A stretch of 64,000 nt of DNA. Origin: an uncultured Pseudomonadales bacterium. GTDB lineage: Bacteria > Patescibacteriota > Microgenomatia > UBA1400 > PJMF01. The translations under genes and the position numbers were made by a program. The DNA is taken from positions 15-64,014 of the forward strand of contig CAZNOF010000008.1 in NCBI GenBank assembly GCA_964574595.1. Reading direction: 5' to 3'. Shown one piece after another: positions 4,207 to 54,364 of this stretch; position 1 is the stretch's first letter, and each line of letters opens with the position of its first letter. The notes beneath the pieces were generated by a model. The model saw only the letters and a list, made by a program, of their open reading frames with translations, did not search any database and was not told the DNA's origin.

Positions 4207-5509
4207 CTTTAGCTAGCTCATCTCGATTCCTTTTTCTCAATGCATATATCGCGAATCCGATACTAAAGAGCAGTAAGAAAAGTCGAGTTAACACTTTCAC
4301 CCAAACTGCTCCGGCTAATCCAAACAGAGGAATAAAGACAACGCCTCCAATCACCGTAATTAAAATCTGCCCAAGCCCGCTTAGTGAGAAGTATCTGGGG
4401 TGGTCCAAACTGTAAAACAAGGCGCTGAATGGTACGCTGGCGATCAGCAAGAAGCCTGACAACATCAGCCATGGCAAAAAGGGTTCTCCGGCAAAGTATT
4501 GACTTCCCACCGTAATTTGAAGGGATAAATGCGTCAGTGGATAGTAGACGATAAAGCCGAATACAGCGCCTAAAACAATCACCATACTTTTCTTCAGAAA
4601 CGAGTGAAGCTCCGTCAGCTTGTGGTATCGTGCCACTCTGGCATCTAGAACAGCGCTCAGTGAATATGCCACTAGAGTGACTGCTGTAGTCAGTTGTGCT
4701 AAGCCTCCGTAAATACCAGTTTCAAAAGGTGTAGTGTACTTTTGGACAAAGAGAATATCTAAATAATCAATAATCCCGACCGTCCCTACAAGAATAACCG
4801 AGTGCTTCATAATTCGCCATAGCTTCCCTTCTACTTCTGGATCATGGGTCAGTTTTAATACAGTCACTTGTTTTGGCAAGGCAGCAAAGAAAACTGGAAA
4901 TGACAGCAGTGGGACCGCATAAAAACAGTAGAAAAGGAAGGTTACTGAATCGATTCCCAAAAACTGAACGCTTAACGCGACTCCCAATTTCAACGCCGCT
5001 TGCGCTACGAGCATCAAGACACTGGCCGAAAAGATGTGAATCATCTGTAAAATGGTGGTGCCATATTCAAAAAGCATGATGACGCTGGCAAACAGAAAGC
5101 TGCCAAACAAAATAATTGGATGTGGAAAGTGAAGCAGATTTGCTAGCGGAATTGCCACGATAGCTCCGAGTAACGTTGAACTCATCATAATGAACATGTT
5201 CATTCGTGACGAAACGTGGATTAAGTGTGAGACCTTTTTCTCCCAGTTTGATTCATGAAAGTACGGGCCGGCTATTTTTTGGAGAGCCACATTCAGGCCA
5301 AGGCTCTGAATTTTGGTGATAATCACCATCAGTGAATATCCCACCGTAAACTCGGCAAACAAAACAGGACCAAGATGCCGAGAAATCATGATTAAGGCTA
5401 CGGCTGTAAAAACTCCCGCGAAGAGGCTGCCACCAACCAAGATCAAAGATTGCCGAAGCCCAGATGAAGAAAGTGCTAGTCGAATGAGTTTTTTCACTCG
5501 CTCCATCAT
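4196..5509 (-). CDS. Wzx-like oligosaccharide flippase (MOP superfamily polysaccharide biosynthesis protein)
   Basis: 437 aa, about 12-14 hydrophobic helices, no soluble domain. Overlaps the DegT gene by 4 bp (operon). Confidence 0.55.
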
Positions 5510-9073: not shown

Positions 9074-10312
9074 TTATGCAATCCAGAAGCCTTGTATAAA
9101 CAAGGCCGTATTAATGATGAGTAGTACTATCGAGACCGCAAACCATACTATAGCAACTTTATGATGTTTGTGTAGTAACTGCGCAATGAGCATATAGATG
9201 GGAAAACAGACTAATACATATCTTGGCATACTAGAAAAAGAACCCGTGAGTGTAGGAATAATAAAGGCTCCGAGTGAGAAAAAAAGATGAGACAGTCGGA
9301 CTTTTCTTGAGGAAAGGAAAATCGCAATTAACCCAATAGTTCCTGCCAGAAACTCCTGGACATAAGACCAGTAACGGAAATTAAATGGCCTGGCAGTTAA
9401 AAGTATTTTGACTGACCGATACAAAACCTGAGGATACATAGTCCAGACTTCGGTATTTCGGCCGCTGCCAAATGAGGCCTGCACATGAGCAAAATATAAG
9501 GGATCTTTGAATGTTACATCCAGGAATATCATATAGAACAAAGTTCCTAAAACACCGCAGCATAGCCAGATAATCTTCCACCAGTTGTGTTGACTGAACA
9601 AAATAATCTCTTGGTAGGTACATTCGACAGTTTTCTGATAGTCCCTGGACTTTTGCCAGGTTTTTTTGCAGATAGCAAGATTAAACTCCTTCCTGAACAG
9701 CTCGATGAGCAAAGCTGGCACAATAAAAACACCGACAATTCTAGTCGAGGAGGCTAATAAACCAAGGAGTCCAGCAGCTCGCCAATTATTCTGTTCGGCA
9801 AAATAAAAGGCGCCCACAATCAGCAGGAGAAATAAACTCTCTGTATAAAGAGCGCCTAAAAAGAATGAAGTTGGAAAAACCAACATTACAAATAAACTCA
9901 TCCAAGCTATCTCGGCATTCTTAAATTTTTTGACAAATGCAAACCAGATTATTAGTAAGCCTAATGTGGCGAGGTTGCTGACCAGCAGCCCCCAAAAGAG
10001 TCCATTAAAATGCCCGCCGAGCAACAGCTTTATGCCATGGAGAATCACAAACGGGAAAAGTGGGAAAAACGCCTGAATCGAACCGGTTCCAATGTATCCC
10101 TTATCTGCAATGGTCAGGTAGTGCACGCCATCAAAATTAGCCCAGCTATAAATCCATTGTGGTAAGTGATAGATCGGAAGTAGTTCATCAAAGTAAGGAA
10201 AACTTGGCTTATATGGGAGAAACAAGGGGGCTATTATGCCAATTAAGAAAAGAATTGCTCTCCAACCACAGAAGAGAAAAACAATTTTTTTCATCTCTTG
10301 AGAAGTAGGCAT
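9074..10312 (-). CDS. polytopic membrane protein, GT-C type; tentatively PIG-V/Gpi18-like mannosyltransferase
   Basis: 412 aa, multiple TM helices. WANFDGVHYLTIADKGY...AFFPLFP resembles the first-loop motif of PIG-V-type mannosyltransferases; family assignment from memory only. Confidence 0.4.
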   Translation of the reverse strand: MPTSQEMKKIVFLFCGWRAILFLIGIIAPLFLPYKPSFPYFDELLPIYHLPQWIYSWANFDGVHYLTIADKGYIGTGSIQAFFPLFPFVILHGIKLLLGGHFNGLFWGLLVSNLATLGLLIIWFAFVKKFKNAEIAWMSLFVMLVFPTSFFLGALYTESLFLLLIVGAFYFAEQNNWRAAGLLGLLASSTRIVGVFIVPALLIELFRKEFNLAICKKTWQKSRDYQKTVECTYQEIILFSQHNWWKIIWLCCGVLGTLFYMIFLDVTFKDPLYFAHVQASFGSGRNTEVWTMYPQVLYRSVKILLTARPFNFRYWSYVQEFLAGTIGLIAIFLSSRKVRLSHLFFSLGAFIIPTLTGSFSSMPRYVLVCFPIYMLIAQLLHKHHKVAIVWFAVSIVLLIINTALFIQGFWIA

Positions 10313-49110: not shown

Positions 49111-49779
49111 CTATCGATCGCTGATCATGTAACCAAATCCGCGAACTGTTTTAATTTGATATCCAGTTTTGCCTAATCTCATTCGAATTCGACGAATATA
49201 GACTGCAATTGTAGAATCTACTGGCATAGACTCTTCCTTCCAGATGTTCTCAATTAATGACTCTTTTGAAATAATTCTATTTTTGTGCCTGATCAGAAAG
49301 CTCAGAATCTCACATTCTTTTTTGCGCAGTTGGACGGTTTCATCTTTGACACACACCGTTCCGCTTTGCGGGAACACACTGACTTGGCCCACATGTAAAG
49401 CAAATGCGTCAATTTGTTTCACTTTCGTCAGCAACTTTTCAATTCGCAACATGAGTTCATCCATTGAGAAGGGCTTAGGTAAGTAGTCATCAGCGCCTTT
49501 TCTCAGTCCTCTGATTCTGTCCTCGGTACTACTCCTTTCAGAAAGAATCAAAAGGGCAATTTCACGATGTGACCAATAGAGATCTTCAGCAATACTAATA
49601 CCGTCTCCATCTGGCAGATTGCGATCAAGAATCACTAAATCATACTTATTTCTATCTAGAAAAGACCTGGCTTGCTCAACAGATCTAGCGACAGACGAAA
49701 AGTAGAGATCTGGAGAAAGCATGGCTGTGATATGCTTGGCGGTACTAATGTTGTCTTCAACAAGTAAAATGTGGTACAT
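49111..49779 (-). CDS. OmpR/PhoB-family response regulator (receiver plus winged-helix); no adjacent histidine kinase
   Basis: MYHILLVEDN...DLVILDRNLPDGDG (phospho-acceptor Asp)...KPF...winged-helix C-terminus with RGFGY. ORF-track start trimmed to MYHILL. Confidence 0.85.
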   Translation of the reverse strand: MYHILLVEDNISTAKHITAMLSPDLYFSSVARSVEQARSFLDRNKYDLVILDRNLPDGDGISIAEDLYWSHREIALLILSERSSTEDRIRGLRKGADDYLPKPFSMDELMLRIEKLLTKVKQIDAFALHVGQVSVFPQSGTVCVKDETVQLRKKECEILSFLIRHKNRIISKESLIENIWKEESMPVDSTIAVYIRRIRMRLGKTGYQIKTVRGFGYMISDR

Positions 49780-49824
49780 GTTTTGTACTATACGTACAAA
49801 AATGAAAAGAAGATGAAACCCTGC

Positions 49825-49830
49825 TATAAT
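49825..49830 (+). promoter_or_regulatory. candidate -10 box (TATAAT) 10 nt upstream of tRNA-Gln
   Basis: Exact TATAAT hexamer; no convincing -35 was found. Confidence 0.3.
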
Positions 49831-49840
49831 ATTCAAGCAT

Positions 49841-49911
49841 TCCCAGGTAGTGCAATGGCAGCACAGCAGGTTCTGACCCTGTTAATCTAGGTTCGAATCC
49901 TAGCCTGGGAT
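49841..49911 (+). tRNA. tRNA-Gln (anticodon CUG), CCA not encoded
   Basis: Manual cloverleaf: acceptor tcccagg/cctggga (U1:A72), U8, D-stem gtgc/gcac with GG loop, anticodon stem gcagg/cctgt with loop ttCTGac, 4-nt variable loop, T-arm ctagg-ttcgaat-cctag, discriminator U. Confidence 0.85.
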
Positions 49912-49993
49912 CACATTTTTCCCCAATAAATTGCTTTTTTTAGTTTCCCCTATAAAATAACCTCAACGGTAACCGAGTTTTTAGGACAGGATC

Positions 49994-50248
49994 ATGATGA
50001 ATCTGGCTGGGACTTCGGTTGTAAATCTGGTTGGGACGACCTTCTGTGATACGGTCTATATTGAAGTCAAAGTTGTCAAAGTCTGGGCAAACCCAGACAC
50101 TGATACGCTGTACATCGAGATAGATCGCCCTTGGTCGAGTTTGACGCCGAGCATTCAGAATGAACTGAATACAGAGGCTGCTAAACTCCTGAAGAGTTGG
50201 CCCGGTTTGACTGCAGATCGCACATACGAAATTCGCGGTATTCAGTGA
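49994..50248 (+). CDS. hypothetical small protein (84 aa), islet gene A
   Basis: ORF preceded by an AGGA RBS and followed by a strong intrinsic terminator. GC about 50% versus about 42% in the flanks. No recognisable motif. Confidence 0.5.
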   Translation: MMNLAGTSVVNLVGTTFCDTVYIEVKVVKVWANPDTDTLYIEIDRPWSSLTPSIQNELNTEAAKLLKSWPGLTADRTYEIRGIQ

Positions 50249-50312
50249 TCGCAGTCATCAATAGATAAGATCTGGGAGATGAAATACTCTCCCAGAACTT
50301 TAAATGAATAGC

Positions 50313-50347
50313 AAAAAGCCGGGCACTATGTCCCGGCTTCTTTTTTA
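50313..50347. terminator. bidirectional rho-independent terminator between convergent islet genes
   Basis: aaaaa-gccgggc-actatg-tcccggc-ttcttttttat: GC stem flanked by an A-run and a T-run. Preceded at 50271-50296 by a perfect 9-bp inverted repeat tctgggaga/tctcccaga. Confidence 0.7.
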
Positions 50348-50425
50348 TGTACGATCATGGTCTAGTGGTGCGCAATGCATCCAACAGATCATTTCACGAT
50401 TGTTTTGTCTAGTAAGTTGTCTGGT

Positions 50426-50842
50426 CTATCGCGGCTTCAGGTTCACAAAAGCAGTTTGCACCTTCTCTACCATAGCAGCGTAGTAACGATGAGTTGTGGT
50501 CAACGAAATAAGCCGGCGTTGAGCTTCAACTGTTTCATCGCCCGTAAAGCAACGAATATTGTTGCGATATTGTCGTTCCCACGTGGTAAACTGGCGGTCG
50601 CGATCACCGTAGGCTCGCATAATACCAGTTTTGTTGAACTTCTTGTCCAAGCCAAGCACTGAGTGGTCATCGACCACTGCCGCTTGAATTTTCGATTGCT
50701 GTGTTTCAATTTTGATTGCCAGCTCAGCCGCCTTTTTATGGTCTTGTGCCTGAGTAGCATCAAATTGAGCAAGTTGCAAAGTTTCTAACGTGTCATACAG
50801 CGCCTTATATTGGTCAACCGTAAATGAGGTGGAAGTAGCCAA
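50426..50842 (-). CDS. hypothetical protein (138 aa), islet paralog B
   Basis: GGAGA RBS 5 nt upstream. Candidate extended -10 TGGTATAAT on the minus strand at 50901-50909. Aligns with the 51050-51478 product (TVDQYKALYDTLETL / TVTEYVALHKELEGL; DDHSVLGLD / DPFDVLGVP). Confidence 0.55.
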   Translation of the reverse strand: MATSTSFTVDQYKALYDTLETLQLAQFDATQAQDHKKAAELAIKIETQQSKIQAAVVDDHSVLGLDKKFNKTGIMRAYGDRDRQFTTWERQYRNNIRCFTGDETVEAQRRLISLTTTHRYYAAMVEKVQTAFVNLKPR

Positions 50843-51049
50843 TTTCTATTCTCCAGAGAACATAATTATTTTAAAGGACGAAACTTAACGAGACAGGGAT
50901 ATTATACCACTTGTTATAGGACGAAGTGTAATAGGTGTGTAGATATGAAAAGACCAGTCCTTTTGAGACCGGTCTCCTGCAGTGTTCGATTAAGAGCAGC
51001 AATCATGCGCTTGGCAGATGCTGACCTTTCTTCGAGTTGGTTGGTTTCG

Positions 51050-51478
51050 CTAGGCAGCAGATGCTGACAAGGATTGCAGCGCGTAACCGAGATGGCAACG
51101 CATGTTCGTCGCTAGCATGACGCCGGTGTTGGCCGTAACTGCCCGCTCACGATCCTCGTCACGCTTGGAGCCCTTGAAGTTCCCGAAGTCGCGGCTGTGA
51201 ATACTCAAGCTTGCTTGGTACTCTTGCAGCTTGGCGGAATAAGCGGCTGATATTGTGTCAGCAGACGCATCATACGGGACGCCAAGGACATCAAACGGAT
51301 CAAGTTCGGCGCTGGCAATGTCGGCTTCAACAGCAACGATGTGCTGCTGTATGCAGCCCCCTTCTTTCAGGGCGGCAATTCGCAATCCTTCAAGTTCCTT
51401 GTGCAATGCAACATATTCAGTTACAGTTATCACTTTGTCTCTCCATGAATCTATAAAGGACAAAAAAGAACTAACCAA
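51050..51478 (-). CDS. hypothetical protein (142 aa), islet paralog C with a J-domain-like helix I/II motif lacking HPD
   Basis: DPFDVLGVPYDASADTISAAYSAKLQEY matches the J-domain consensus DYYEILGVxxDASxEEIKKAYRKLA, but HPD is replaced by IHSRD. Local GC is 55-62% (33/60 and 37/60 counted). Confidence 0.55.
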   Translation of the reverse strand: MVSSFLSFIDSWRDKVITVTEYVALHKELEGLRIAALKEGGCIQQHIVAVEADIASAELDPFDVLGVPYDASADTISAAYSAKLQEYQASLSIHSRDFGNFKGSKRDEDRERAVTANTGVMLATNMRCHLGYALQSLSASAA

Positions 51479-51521
51479 ACCAGAGGAGATTATACACCCG
51501 CTTTTTTTTAGCTGAGAAGAA

Positions 51522-51794
51522 CTATTTTGTGGGCTGGCCAGTTGGCTGGCTGAACTGAACGTGCATGGAGATATCGAGCTGTGTTTTATACCAACCTAAG
51601 AGGTACATACCCACAATAAAGAGGCTGCCCAAGGCAATCACGATTAGGAATGCGTTTTTGGCAAAGGAAGGCGATTCTGGCTCTTCAAGAGCGGGAGTAA
51701 TGTACGCTTGCACGGGTGTCTTAATCTCTGACACTGGCATTTGAGGTGCATTTATTTGTGGTGGCGCTGGAATTTGTGGTTGTGGCTGTTCCAT
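51522..51794 (-). CDS. small proline-rich single-TM membrane protein (90 aa)
   Basis: MEQPQPQIPAPPQINAPQMP... then AFLIVIALGSLFIVGMYLLGWY helix. Stop lies 2 nt from the P-type ATPase start (co-transcribed). Confidence 0.45.
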   Translation of the reverse strand: MEQPQPQIPAPPQINAPQMPVSEIKTPVQAYITPALEEPESPSFAKNAFLIVIALGSLFIVGMYLLGWYKTQLDISMHVQFSQPTGQPTK

Positions 51795-51796
51795 GT

Positions 51797-54364
51797 CTAA
51801 ATTGTCTTTACTACATAATCTTGGCTAATACGCTCTTTGATATGAAAATAAAATTTCTTCTTTAGCCATTCTACAATTAAAAAGTAGGTAATGATAAGCA
51901 CGGCGAGCAAACCGTAGTACTGTGCTGGTAATCTCACAAACTGAAAGACCTCTGCCAACGGGCTAATTGGCAAGAGTAAACCAACCGAGATAATCACAAA
52001 CATACTCAATACCAAGAAACGACTGGCCTTGCTTTTCAAGAACGGTACTTTACTCGTTCTAATGCTAAACAAAATAAACGACTGTGTCAGTAGGCTTTCC
52101 ACAAAAACACCAGTTCTAAACATCTCAGGCGTTGCTCTAAGGGCAAACAACAAAATGGCGCCAGCAATTAAATCAAAAAATGAACTCACCGGTCCAAAAA
52201 TCAGCATAAACCGCTGAATAAACTTGATATCCCAACGATGTGGCTTCCTCAGCTCTTCTGCATCAACATGATCACTTGGTAAAGCGAGTTGAGAGGCATC
52301 ATACAGTAAGTCGTTTAAAAGTAACTGGATTGGCAGCATTGGGATAAAAGGCAAGACAATGGAGGCGACCGCCACACTTAACATGTTTCCAAAATTAGAA
52401 CTTGTCCCCATCATGATGTACTTCATGATATTAGCGTGGGTTTTTCTGCCTTCAACCACACCGTCTTTTAAGACATGCAGATCCTTATGCATCAAAATCA
52501 AATCCGCGCTTTCCTTGGCTACATCAGTGCCCGTATTGACGGAAATGCCCACGTCAGCAGTTCTGAGTGACGGCGAATCATTAATTCCATCACCCAAGAA
52601 GCCAATCACTTCATTCCCCTTCTTTAGGGCTGCAATAATTCGGCGCTTATCTTCCGGAGAAAGGTCAGCAAAAATTGTGGTTTGACGAGCTTTCAAAAGC
52701 AGGTGAGGTTCATTTAAATGACGCATTTCGGCGGCGGTTAAAATGCCTTTAACTTCCAAATTCAGATCCTGACAAATCTTGGCGGTCACGTACTTGTTGT
52801 CCCCAGTTAGAATCTTGATCTCAACTTTGTGTTGCTCGAGTAGCTTTAATGCCTCGCCAGCAGAAGCTTTGGGCTCATCTTTGAAGAGTAGGAGCCCTTC
52901 AAATATCATCTTATCTTCTAAATGCATCCCAAATTGGCTGACACCCTCCACATCTTTGGTCGCCACAGCCAAAACCCGAATTCCTTTTTTATTCAGTTCT
53001 GTAATCCGATCGCTGACTTTCTGTCTCAAACGTGAGTTCATGGGAACTAAGCGATTTTTATCTCTAGCACTGCTACAGACTGTCAAAACTGATTCTGCCA
53101 TGCCCTTCGTGATCAACTGCTCCGCCTTCCCGTGTTTCACAACTACTGAGACTCTTTTTCGATGGTAGTCATACTTAATTTCATGAACCTTTTGAAATTG
53201 AGAAACCTTAAGATCCGGATTATTAGCCAGAATAGCTAAGTCTAGAAAGTTACGGATGGTGGTTTGAAAGGTACTGTTCAGCCAACCATAATCAAACACG
53301 GCCTGCATCGGCTTTTCGTTCATATCTTCAAACCCATTCAAAGTAATCTTGCCCTCAGTCAGAGTGCCAGTTTTGTCAGTACACAGCACATCCATACTTC
53401 CGAGGTTTTGAATTGCTGCTAAGTCTTTGACGACCACACCTTTTTTGGACATCCGCATGGCACCTTTTGACAGCGTGACCGTAATGATCATTGGTAAAAG
53501 CTCAGGTGTGAGGCCAATCGCAATTGCTAAGGCAAATAGAAAGGATTCCAAGATATCGTGTTTAAAGAAAGCCAATGTGAAGAAGACAAACAGCACAAGG
53601 GCGAAGGTGACTTTTAACAGAAAATATCCAAACTGCTCAACGCCTAGCATGAACTCTGTCTTAGGTCTTGATTGAGAAAGAGATTGTCCTATCAATCCAA
53701 GTTGACTACTCCTGCCAACTCTCGTCACAACAGCCAGACCTTGACCACTCACTACCAACGTTCCTAAAAAGACAGAATTCAGTTGCTCGCTGACTGGTGT
53801 AGAAATTTTTTCAATTCTTGTCGATTTTGCTTGAGGCGCAGACTCTCCTGTCAAGGTTGACTGATCAATCTGCAGTTCACTCTCAGAAATAATTCGACCA
53901 TCGGCTGGCACAATATTTCCGGGAGCTAAAACAAACACATCTCCATACGTTAAGTGTGACGCGGGAATCGTCGTTACCACCCCATCTCGATAAACGTTTG
54001 CCGACAGTGAGACTCGCTTTTTGAGCTTCTCGGCAATATTGTTGGCTTGAAATTCTTGAAAGAAATCTAAGAAAATACTCATCAGTAAAATTACAGCGAT
54101 GATCAAAGAGCTGGTCACTTCACCTAAAAAGGCAGAAATTGCATTGGCAAAAAGGAGAATGATGATTAAGGGATTTGCAAACTTGGAGAGAAGTAGTTTC
54201 CAAACTGGTTTTTGTTTGACTTGGACTTCATTTTTTCCGTACAAAAGCGCTCTACGCTCGGCTTCAACTTGTGACAAACCAGTCTCTGTAGAAACATACT
54301 CTTTGAGGAGTTGAGGCAGTGGAATAGACCAAAATGGCTCAAGAGTAAATTGAGGAATCCGCAT
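51797..54364 (-). CDS. P-type cation-transporting ATPase (P2/P3-type, MgtA/Ca-ATPase-like)
   Basis: ICTDKTGTLT (phosphorylation motif), TGDN, GDGINDSPSL hinge motif, 10 predicted TM helices; 855 aa. Confidence 0.85.
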   Translation of the reverse strand: MRIPQFTLEPFWSIPLPQLLKEYVSTETGLSQVEAERRALLYGKNEVQVKQKPVWKLLLSKFANPLIIILLFANAISAFLGEVTSSLIIAVILLMSIFLDFFQEFQANNIAEKLKKRVSLSANVYRDGVVTTIPASHLTYGDVFVLAPGNIVPADGRIISESELQIDQSTLTGESAPQAKSTRIEKISTPVSEQLNSVFLGTLVVSGQGLAVVTRVGRSSQLGLIGQSLSQSRPKTEFMLGVEQFGYFLLKVTFALVLFVFFTLAFFKHDILESFLFALAIAIGLTPELLPMIITVTLSKGAMRMSKKGVVVKDLAAIQNLGSMDVLCTDKTGTLTEGKITLNGFEDMNEKPMQAVFDYGWLNSTFQTTIRNFLDLAILANNPDLKVSQFQKVHEIKYDYHRKRVSVVVKHGKAEQLITKGMAESVLTVCSSARDKNRLVPMNSRLRQKVSDRITELNKKGIRVLAVATKDVEGVSQFGMHLEDKMIFEGLLLFKDEPKASAGEALKLLEQHKVEIKILTGDNKYVTAKICQDLNLEVKGILTAAEMRHLNEPHLLLKARQTTIFADLSPEDKRRIIAALKKGNEVIGFLGDGINDSPSLRTADVGISVNTGTDVAKESADLILMHKDLHVLKDGVVEGRKTHANIMKYIMMGTSSNFGNMLSVAVASIVLPFIPMLPIQLLLNDLLYDASQLALPSDHVDAEELRKPHRWDIKFIQRFMLIFGPVSSFFDLIAGAILLFALRATPEMFRTGVFVESLLTQSFILFSIRTSKVPFLKSKASRFLVLSMFVIISVGLLLPISPLAEVFQFVRLPAQYYGLLAVLIITYFLIVEWLKKKFYFHIKERISQDYVVKTI

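Follow-up and report, generated by a model that had tools for sequence, protein, structure and literature searches.

Lineage-specific orphan genes in a variable slot next to tRNA-Gln(CUG) of a Patescibacteria-like genome

The 64,000-nucleotide stretch of contig CAZNOF010000008.1 (GenBank assembly GCA_964574595.1) analysed here, hereafter the window, contains at positions 49913–51521 an islet of 1.6 kb which carries three small genes and whose left limit lies exactly at the 3′ end of a tRNA-Gln(CUG) gene. Comparison with related genomes and base composition support the conclusion that the islet is accessory DNA in a tRNA-Gln-adjacent hotspot and not conserved core. It probably constitutes the present lineage-specific content of a long-lived hotspot of gene gain and loss at the tRNA-Gln(CUG) 3′ end in a Patescibacteria (Microgenomates-like) clade, an "additive" flexible islet. 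As a tRNA-adjacent additive island it is a known kind of phenomenon and reveals no new mechanism. The islet and the elements framing it are the following (aa, amino acids):

49111–49779, minus strand: OmpR-family response regulator, 222 aa counted from the ATG of MYHILL (Pfam Response_reg and Trans_reg_C)
49802–49830, plus strand: promoter-like site of the tRNA gene, ATGAAA-17-TATAAT with TG (promoter scan)
49841–49912, plus strand: tRNA-Gln(CUG) (ARAGORN; Rfam 65 bits)
49913–51521, no strand: islet proper, lineage-specific cargo (breakpoints at both ends, no similarity to the relatives' segments, 45.9% GC)
51522–51794, minus strand: gene of a 90-aa single-pass membrane protein, beginning 3 nt past the ATPase stop codon and lying outside the islet
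51797–54364, minus strand: P-type cation ATPase (Pfam)

A tRNA-adjacent slot of changing content

The loci of relatives were obtained via homologs of the response regulator and their contigs, and 168 loci were fetched (L081 corresponds to GCA_040384245.1, L082–84 originate from JGI and L085 is GCA_964746005.1). Two other approaches were discarded: the ATPase as synteny anchor, since its best matches among species-representative genomes are only 42–49% identical and stem from unrelated phyla (an archaeon and Proteobacteria), and the response regulator as query of a metagenome scan, which returned only relatives of ≤38% identity, useless for synteny. The response-regulator orthologs of five distinct relatives are 84%, 83%, 80%, 76% and 73% identical to that of the window and adjoin tRNA-Gln in L081–L087, those of L081, L082–84 and L085 being in the range of 76–84%; named weaker matches belong to Woesebacteria, Microgenomates and Patescibacteria, from which the window presumably derives from a Patescibacteria (Microgenomates-like) genome. 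The response regulator, divergently oriented to tRNA-Gln, thereby forms a conserved left flank, and the glycosyltransferase cluster behind it is retained in all relatives. The tRNA itself has the same sequence or a single-nucleotide difference in six relatives.

In all genomes with aligned DNA (L081–L085) the blastn similarity to the window runs across the tRNA gene and ends at 49913/49914, i.e. 1–2 nt past tRNA-Gln, as in islands that begin at a tRNA 3′ end. The left boundary given in an earlier note on this DNA, the 3′ end of tRNA-Gln(CUG), is thereby confirmed. Similarity returns at 51653 in L081 and at 51858 in L082–84, inside or beside the small gene linked to the ATPase, and beyond these points covers the ATPase, M29 peptidase, Ham1, YbaB and dnaX. 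The islet ends near 51521, because the 90-aa open reading frame (ORF) has orthologs just after the ATPase in relatives; the end at 51796, directly at the ATPase operon, as assumed in the earlier note, had to be revised, since this small gene goes with the ATPase. Between these flanks, the relatives contain the following:

L081: acyltransferase (Acyl_transf_3), epimerase and a 315-aa protein
L082–84: 304-aa and 265-aa proteins
L085: unrelated genes over ≥9.8 kb, among them NUDIX, nucleotidyltransferase and AAA_5, without the ATPase
L086: one 157-aa protein
L087: MscL, 148-aa and 157-aa proteins
L168: CutA1, HNH (HNH_5), 158-aa and 153-aa proteins

Seven differing slot contents were thus found (window, L081, L082, L085, L086, L087 and L168), the pattern of an island of variable content. 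An all-against-all BLASTP comparison revealed no similarity of the slot cargos of L081–L087 to one another or to the window genes, and tblastx/tblastn searches of the islet against the 168 fetched loci gave no match; most of the relatives' slot proteins are also without a match in Pfam, PHROGs and PADLOC. The comparison with related genomes proposed in the earlier note hence yielded preserved flanks with a different cargo in each relative; the empty tRNA-Gln/ATPase junction it had envisaged was not found.

Gene order in two more distant loci, the P0019 contig and L168, reveals the slot to be old. The P0019 contig (response regulator 60% identical) exhibits M29-LytR-MFS, then a gap, then the response regulator, and is devoid of the ATPase. 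In L168 (9844–10666; response regulator 47% identical) the response regulator/tRNA-Gln unit has the opposite orientation with respect to the glycosyltransferase and dnaX flanks, such that the response regulator directly adjoins M29 and CutA1, HNH_5 and the two other genes are placed on the tRNA 3′ side. Since odd genes occupy this position even beside the inverted unit, the variable DNA goes with the 3′ end of the tRNA.

The composition of the islet, for which the 64-kb window served as background in all statistics, deviates in the manner of genomic islands. The islet is the most atypical DNA of the window, driven mainly by the gene of a 127-aa protein. In strand-symmetric tetranucleotide distance it ranks first among ~630 sliding windows at sizes of 1600, 1000 and 500 bp, with z values of 3.8, 4.3 and 4.9, respectively, and the GC peak of the entire 64 kb is a 300-bp stretch from 51077 with 57.0% GC (z=5.0). 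The mean GC content of the window is 42.4%. The GC bump counted by hand in the earlier note (55% at 51061–51120 and 62% at 51121–51180) is real, with recomputed values of 53.3% and 63.3%, and its housekeeping reference of about 45% for dnaX agrees with the determined 46.0%; the islet also heads the sliding-window ranking suggested there. GC at third codon positions (GC3) amounts to 0.51, 0.47, 0.56 and 0.48 in the four small genes (0.47–0.56 in the islet genes), compared with 0.33–0.47 in the remaining 48 long ORFs. The strong GC anomaly is confined to the 127-aa gene (53.6% GC).

Origin of the slot content

Islands next to tRNA genes, in which older insertions are serially displaced away from the tRNA, were described in Alteromonas (PMC4898812) and, built by tycheposons, in Prochlorococcus (bioRxiv 10.1101/2020.12.28.424599). 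The slot described here shares with them the position at a tRNA 3′ end, conserved flanks, lineage-specific cassettes of deviant composition, a cargo mainly of no assigned function, older cargo farther from the tRNA and, in one relative (L085), a partial tRNA repeat. It differs from them in that the islet of the window is very small with its 1.6 kb and three genes, that the window copy contains neither a recombinase nor a tRNA-end repeat, that the host genome is reduced and Patescibacteria-like, and that no cassette is common to any two of the sampled genomes.

In analogy, the islet cargo would have arrived by horizontal transfer, most likely by small elements that integrated site-specifically into the tRNA 3′ end and whose recombinase and outer attachment (att) repeat would have been lost afterwards, while older layers, namely the ATPase and its small membrane partner, would have been displaced away from the tRNA. 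Partial-tRNA scars are typical of site-specific integration. In L085 the last 14 nt of the tRNA (CCTAGCCTGGGATC) recur exactly, as a direct repeat in the same orientation, 143 nt downstream of the tRNA (repeat at 9652–9665, tRNA at 9808–9879), with a strong hairpin/T-run terminator in between. As the chance expectation for a given 14-mer in the L085 locus is only ~1.5e-4, the repeat looks like an integration scar. The terminal 9 nt of the tRNA recur in an intergenic gap of L085 at 4753–4761, which could be chance; taken together, the repeats suggest that L085 carries stacked integration scars.

Several observations weigh against this scenario. At 49913–51796 no integrase, recombinase, transposase or other mobile-element gene was detected among the ORFs or with Pfam, PHROGs and PADLOC, in line with the earlier note, which had listed no integrase or transposase. 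The direct repeat of the tRNA 3′ end (att) suggested there was searched for in the window and not found, an exact 14-nt repeat being present only in L085; the integration mechanism of the window is consequently deduced from this one relative and from analogy. An empty site was not encountered in any relative, and neither a donor nor cargo homologs turned up in the collections searched. Because no donor was found, the evidence for a horizontal origin is composition and presence/absence only, and fast turnover at the site or birth of the genes de novo would be conceivable. Moreover, the GC content of the whole islet is 46% (z=2.8), a value comparable to that of two housekeeping stretches near 57–59 kb, and the GC excess is modest away from the 127-aa gene. 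Finally, the status of the 84-aa protein as an orphan is based on its singleton cluster and on the smaller collections: a joint query of the 84-aa and 90-aa proteins recovered nothing, not even itself or the known 90-aa orthologs, and the null result of this concatenated search was treated as unreliable, both proteins being present in the collection searched.

The slot content might alternatively be swapped by homologous recombination across the conserved flanks (the tRNA/response regulator to the left, the ATPase or M29 peptidase to the right), that is by integrase-free uptake of DNA from relatives. We regard this as rather unlikely but still a live alternative. It agrees with the missing integrase and att repeat of the window, with flanks conserved to 68–73% at the DNA level (100% for the tRNA) and with slots of like size (1.6–3.1 kb); it is at odds with a similarity break lying precisely at the tRNA 3′ end in every aligned genome, with the partial tRNA repeat of L085, which indicates site-specific integration, and with a right flank that is not the same between clades. 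The inverted unit of L168, with its variable genes on the tRNA side, likewise reveals no fixed flank pair.

A second alternative, according to which the three genes are vertically inherited and very fast-evolving or arose de novo, and their composition reflects amino-acid content instead of foreign origin, appears very unlikely. The searches found neither donor nor homologs, the presence of two paralogs shows local duplication and divergence, and part of the GC excess resides at codon positions 1 and 2, all of which would fit. However, GC3 is raised as well, no other stretch of the window deviates as strongly in its tetranucleotide signature, and residual similarity of the window genes to the slot genes of relatives was looked for and not found. 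The slots of relatives, furthermore, vary in gene number, size and orientation and hold recognisable unrelated families (Acyl_transf_3, Epimerase, MscL, CutA1, HNH), which argues for replacement and not divergence. That the ORFs are spurious or the segment an assembly artefact at a strain-variable site is hardly credible: the source is indeed one 79-kb public metagenome-assembled contig with singleton proteins, and strain-variation hotspots are prone to assembly problems, but both junctions join syntenic flanks cleanly and the ORFs are equipped with ribosome-binding sites, promoters and terminators, protein-level paralogy and confident fold predictions.

The islet genes and their products

Within the probable additive islet, the genes and their predicted transcription signals are arranged as follows:

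49994–50248, plus strand: 84-aa orphan gene, convergent with the other two islet genes
50313–50342, both strands: bidirectional intrinsic terminator common to the 84-aa and 138-aa genes (folding)
50426–50842, minus strand: 138-aa orphan gene, paralog A
50899–50891, minus strand: extended −10 element TGGTATAAT, ~49 nt 5′ of the 138-aa start codon (read directly)
50946–50981, minus strand: intrinsic terminator hairpin 3′ of the 127-aa gene (−18.1 kcal/mol, z −3.8), followed by UUUUCAU
51050–51433, minus strand: 127-aa orphan gene, paralog B (GTG start at 51433, GGAGA ribosome-binding site, GC3 0.56)
51489–51518, minus strand: promoter-like site of the 127-aa gene, TTCTCA-18-TATAAT, 10/12 matches (promoter scan)

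The three genes are predicted to be autonomous promoter-gene-terminator units, with a promoter-like element and a terminator of its own for each paralog, and with the 84-aa gene converging on the bidirectional terminator. The latter, already recognised in the earlier note as strong, has a folding energy of −17.9 kcal/mol (z −3.5) when read from the minus strand and of −15.1 kcal/mol (z −2.4) from the plus strand. The extended −10 element TGGTATAAT noted there was likewise recovered on the minus strand; it is not accompanied by a good −35 element and hence is not listed by the promoter scan. Among the small ORFs previously counted, those of 84 and 138 aa stand, while that of 142 aa is shortened to 127 aa and that of 90 aa is reassigned to the ATPase. 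The 127-aa ORF can be extended to a TTG at 51478, which gives the 142 aa; the public annotation likewise uses 127 aa. A coding-like pattern of GC at the three codon positions (GC1>GC3>GC2) is found in the paralogs only, and in the 84-aa gene GC3 exceeds GC1. Rfam, consulted for a structured RNA that might underlie the GC bump, gave nothing beyond the tRNA and a His_leader match below threshold at the terminator. The islet genes look real because of protein-level paralogy, ribosome-binding sites, promoters, terminators, the coding-like pattern and confident structural models.

Judged from their sequences, the 138-aa and 127-aa proteins are diverged paralogs, with 23–25% identity over 110 aa (pairwise BLASTP E=5e-5) and a common signature D-x-[FH]-x-V-L-G-[LV]...I..AY. 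AlphaFold2 run on the two-sequence paralog alignment predicted two helical hairpins plus a short joining helix (predicted local distance difference test score, pLDDT, 90.5; predicted template modelling score, pTM, 0.82). The 84-aa protein is of the alpha/beta type, residues 18–84 being predicted as a beta-beta-alpha-beta domain. In the public protein collection all islet proteins form singleton clusters. The paralog profile retrieved only self matches from 5.8 billion clusters, and an exhaustive HMMER search of 1.84 billion representatives added three weak matches, P0006–P0008 (E 5e-7 to 3e-4), namely one six-fold J-domain repeat protein and two J-like repeat proteins lacking the HPD tripeptide.

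Both paralogs contain a candidate motif for helices I–II of J domains (DnaJ/Hsp40, PF00226), DDHSVLGLDKKFNKTGIMRAY in the 138-aa and DPFDVLGVPYDASADTISAAY in the 127-aa protein, and J domains are the top sub-threshold matches in Pfam, the PDB and the profile library. The Pfam threshold for the J domain was not reached, with 15.6 bits (E=0.017, cutoff 27.8) for the 127-aa protein over DnaJ positions 1–28 and no match for the 138-aa protein. Eight of the 12 sub-significant PDB matches are J domains aligned on helices I–II and stopping where the HPD would start, and hhalign gave a probability of 77% over 31 columns, against a small J-domain alignment composed by hand. The HPD tripeptide is missing in both paralogs, its place being occupied by ...QEYQASLSI... 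in the 127-aa protein and by ...RQFTTWERQ... in the other. The 127-aa protein is closest to a J domain without HPD, that of P0008; the two are 43% identical over 37 aa, a stretch that takes in the segment replacing HPD (KLQEYQASLSI in the 127-aa protein, KLIEAQYSASI in P0008). P0008 itself is carried on a 1.5-kb contig, the context of which is uninformative.

As is established for Hsp40 function, a protein without HPD cannot stimulate Hsp70. As the tripeptide is missing, the paralogs are not classical Hsp70 co-chaperones; judged from sequence and model they are presumably small, helical and cytoplasmic, with a helical hairpin at the N-terminus and, behind it, a degenerate J-like segment devoid of HPD. 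Our best guess, made with low confidence, is that they act as protein-binding adaptors or decoys and not as enzymes. It is improbable, and would be a bold extension of this guess, that they found a new small HPD-less J-like family of autonomous cassettes in an ultra-small Patescibacteria tRNA-Gln hotspot which modulate or decoy Hsp70/DnaK of the host or a partner cell, e.g. in takeover by mobile elements or in defence against it.

Other functional assignments were considered and dropped. A type II toxin-antitoxin system is likewise made up of small adjoining genes within accessory DNA; in contrast to it, the islet neighbours are mutual paralogs, predicted to be transcribed separately from their own promoters with a terminator between them, and match no toxin or antitoxin family. 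Anti-phage defence was rejected as the sole match to the PADLOC defence models, also the outcome of the check with defence-system hidden Markov models recommended in the earlier note, is Cas7f at a chance level of 12.7 bits. Prophage morons resemble the paralogs in the individual sigma-70-like promoter and intrinsic terminator of each gene and in a composition unlike that of the surroundings; unlike morons, the islet is not accompanied by prophage or phage genes and resembles no phage protein or structure, and a prophage remnant was dismissed on the same grounds. Specifically, the islet proteins match PHROGs phage families only at E>=0.012, the three of them found no counterpart among GenBank phages, plasmids and viral contigs, and the paralog model returned nothing from the BFVD library of viral structures. 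Of the horizontal mini-module proposed in the earlier note, the accessory hotspot DNA is thus upheld by synteny, breakpoint and composition, while its toxin-antitoxin, anti-phage and phage-takeover interpretations are not.

The flanking genes and wider implications

The ATPase constitutes the right flank common to the window, L081 and L082–84 and is missing from the corresponding neighbourhood in L085, L168 and the P0019 contig. It probably represents an older horizontal acquisition in the tRNA-Gln slot with a GC content that is host-like by now, and seems, along with its small partner, to form an older layer confined to the window/L081/L082 subclade. The partner, an 80–90-aa membrane protein, is encoded 1–3 nt past the ATPase stop codon in three genomes. 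Its orthologs directly 3′ of the ATPase show 58% identity in L081 (6521–6760; E=1e-23) and 44% in L082 (7682–7948; E=5e-13); because they directly follow the ATPase in relatives, the 90-aa gene belongs to the ATPase unit. The family has in common a Pro-rich N-terminus, a single hydrophobic helix and an LGWYK.QL motif after the helix, and gave no match in Pfam or NCBIfam. Other small proteins partner P-type ATPases, and the 90-aa protein may be a so far unannotated accessory or regulatory subunit of the ATPase. From its gene to the 127-aa promoter (51480–51530, minus strand) no terminator was detected (fold −3.6 kcal/mol, z +0.5), and transcription of the ATPase operon may continue into the islet.

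On the left side, the 222-aa form of the response regulator is used in the public annotation and in all orthologs. The mechanically called ORF begins at a TTG 19 codons before the true ATG (MYHILL...), at 49780–49836, and this extension would overlap the promoter region of the tRNA. A "ctgctataat" or "ctgatataat" motif 5′ of tRNA-Gln is retained in L081, L082, L086 and L087. Farther upstream, the window from about 1 to 49100 consists mostly of one very large envelope-glycosylation region, which includes many multi-pass membrane proteins of 400–600 aa (PMT/PMT_2/MptA_B-type in syntenic relatives), GT2 enzymes, epimerases and UDP-glucose dehydrogenase; its part at ~39.5–49.1 kb is syntenic in relatives.

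Pangenome analyses and annotations would do well to count the slot as accessory DNA and to assign the 90-aa gene to the ATPase. Structural or functional studies could take up the orphan proteins, although nothing yet marks them out. Little has been described of mobile elements and routes of gene exchange in the Patescibacteria-like group, and the locus provides a base-level record of a tRNA-Gln-anchored gene-turnover hotspot in a reduced clade of this kind. Genomes even as small as these seem to reserve a slot that becomes filled with orphan genes, on top of an ATPase acquired earlier.

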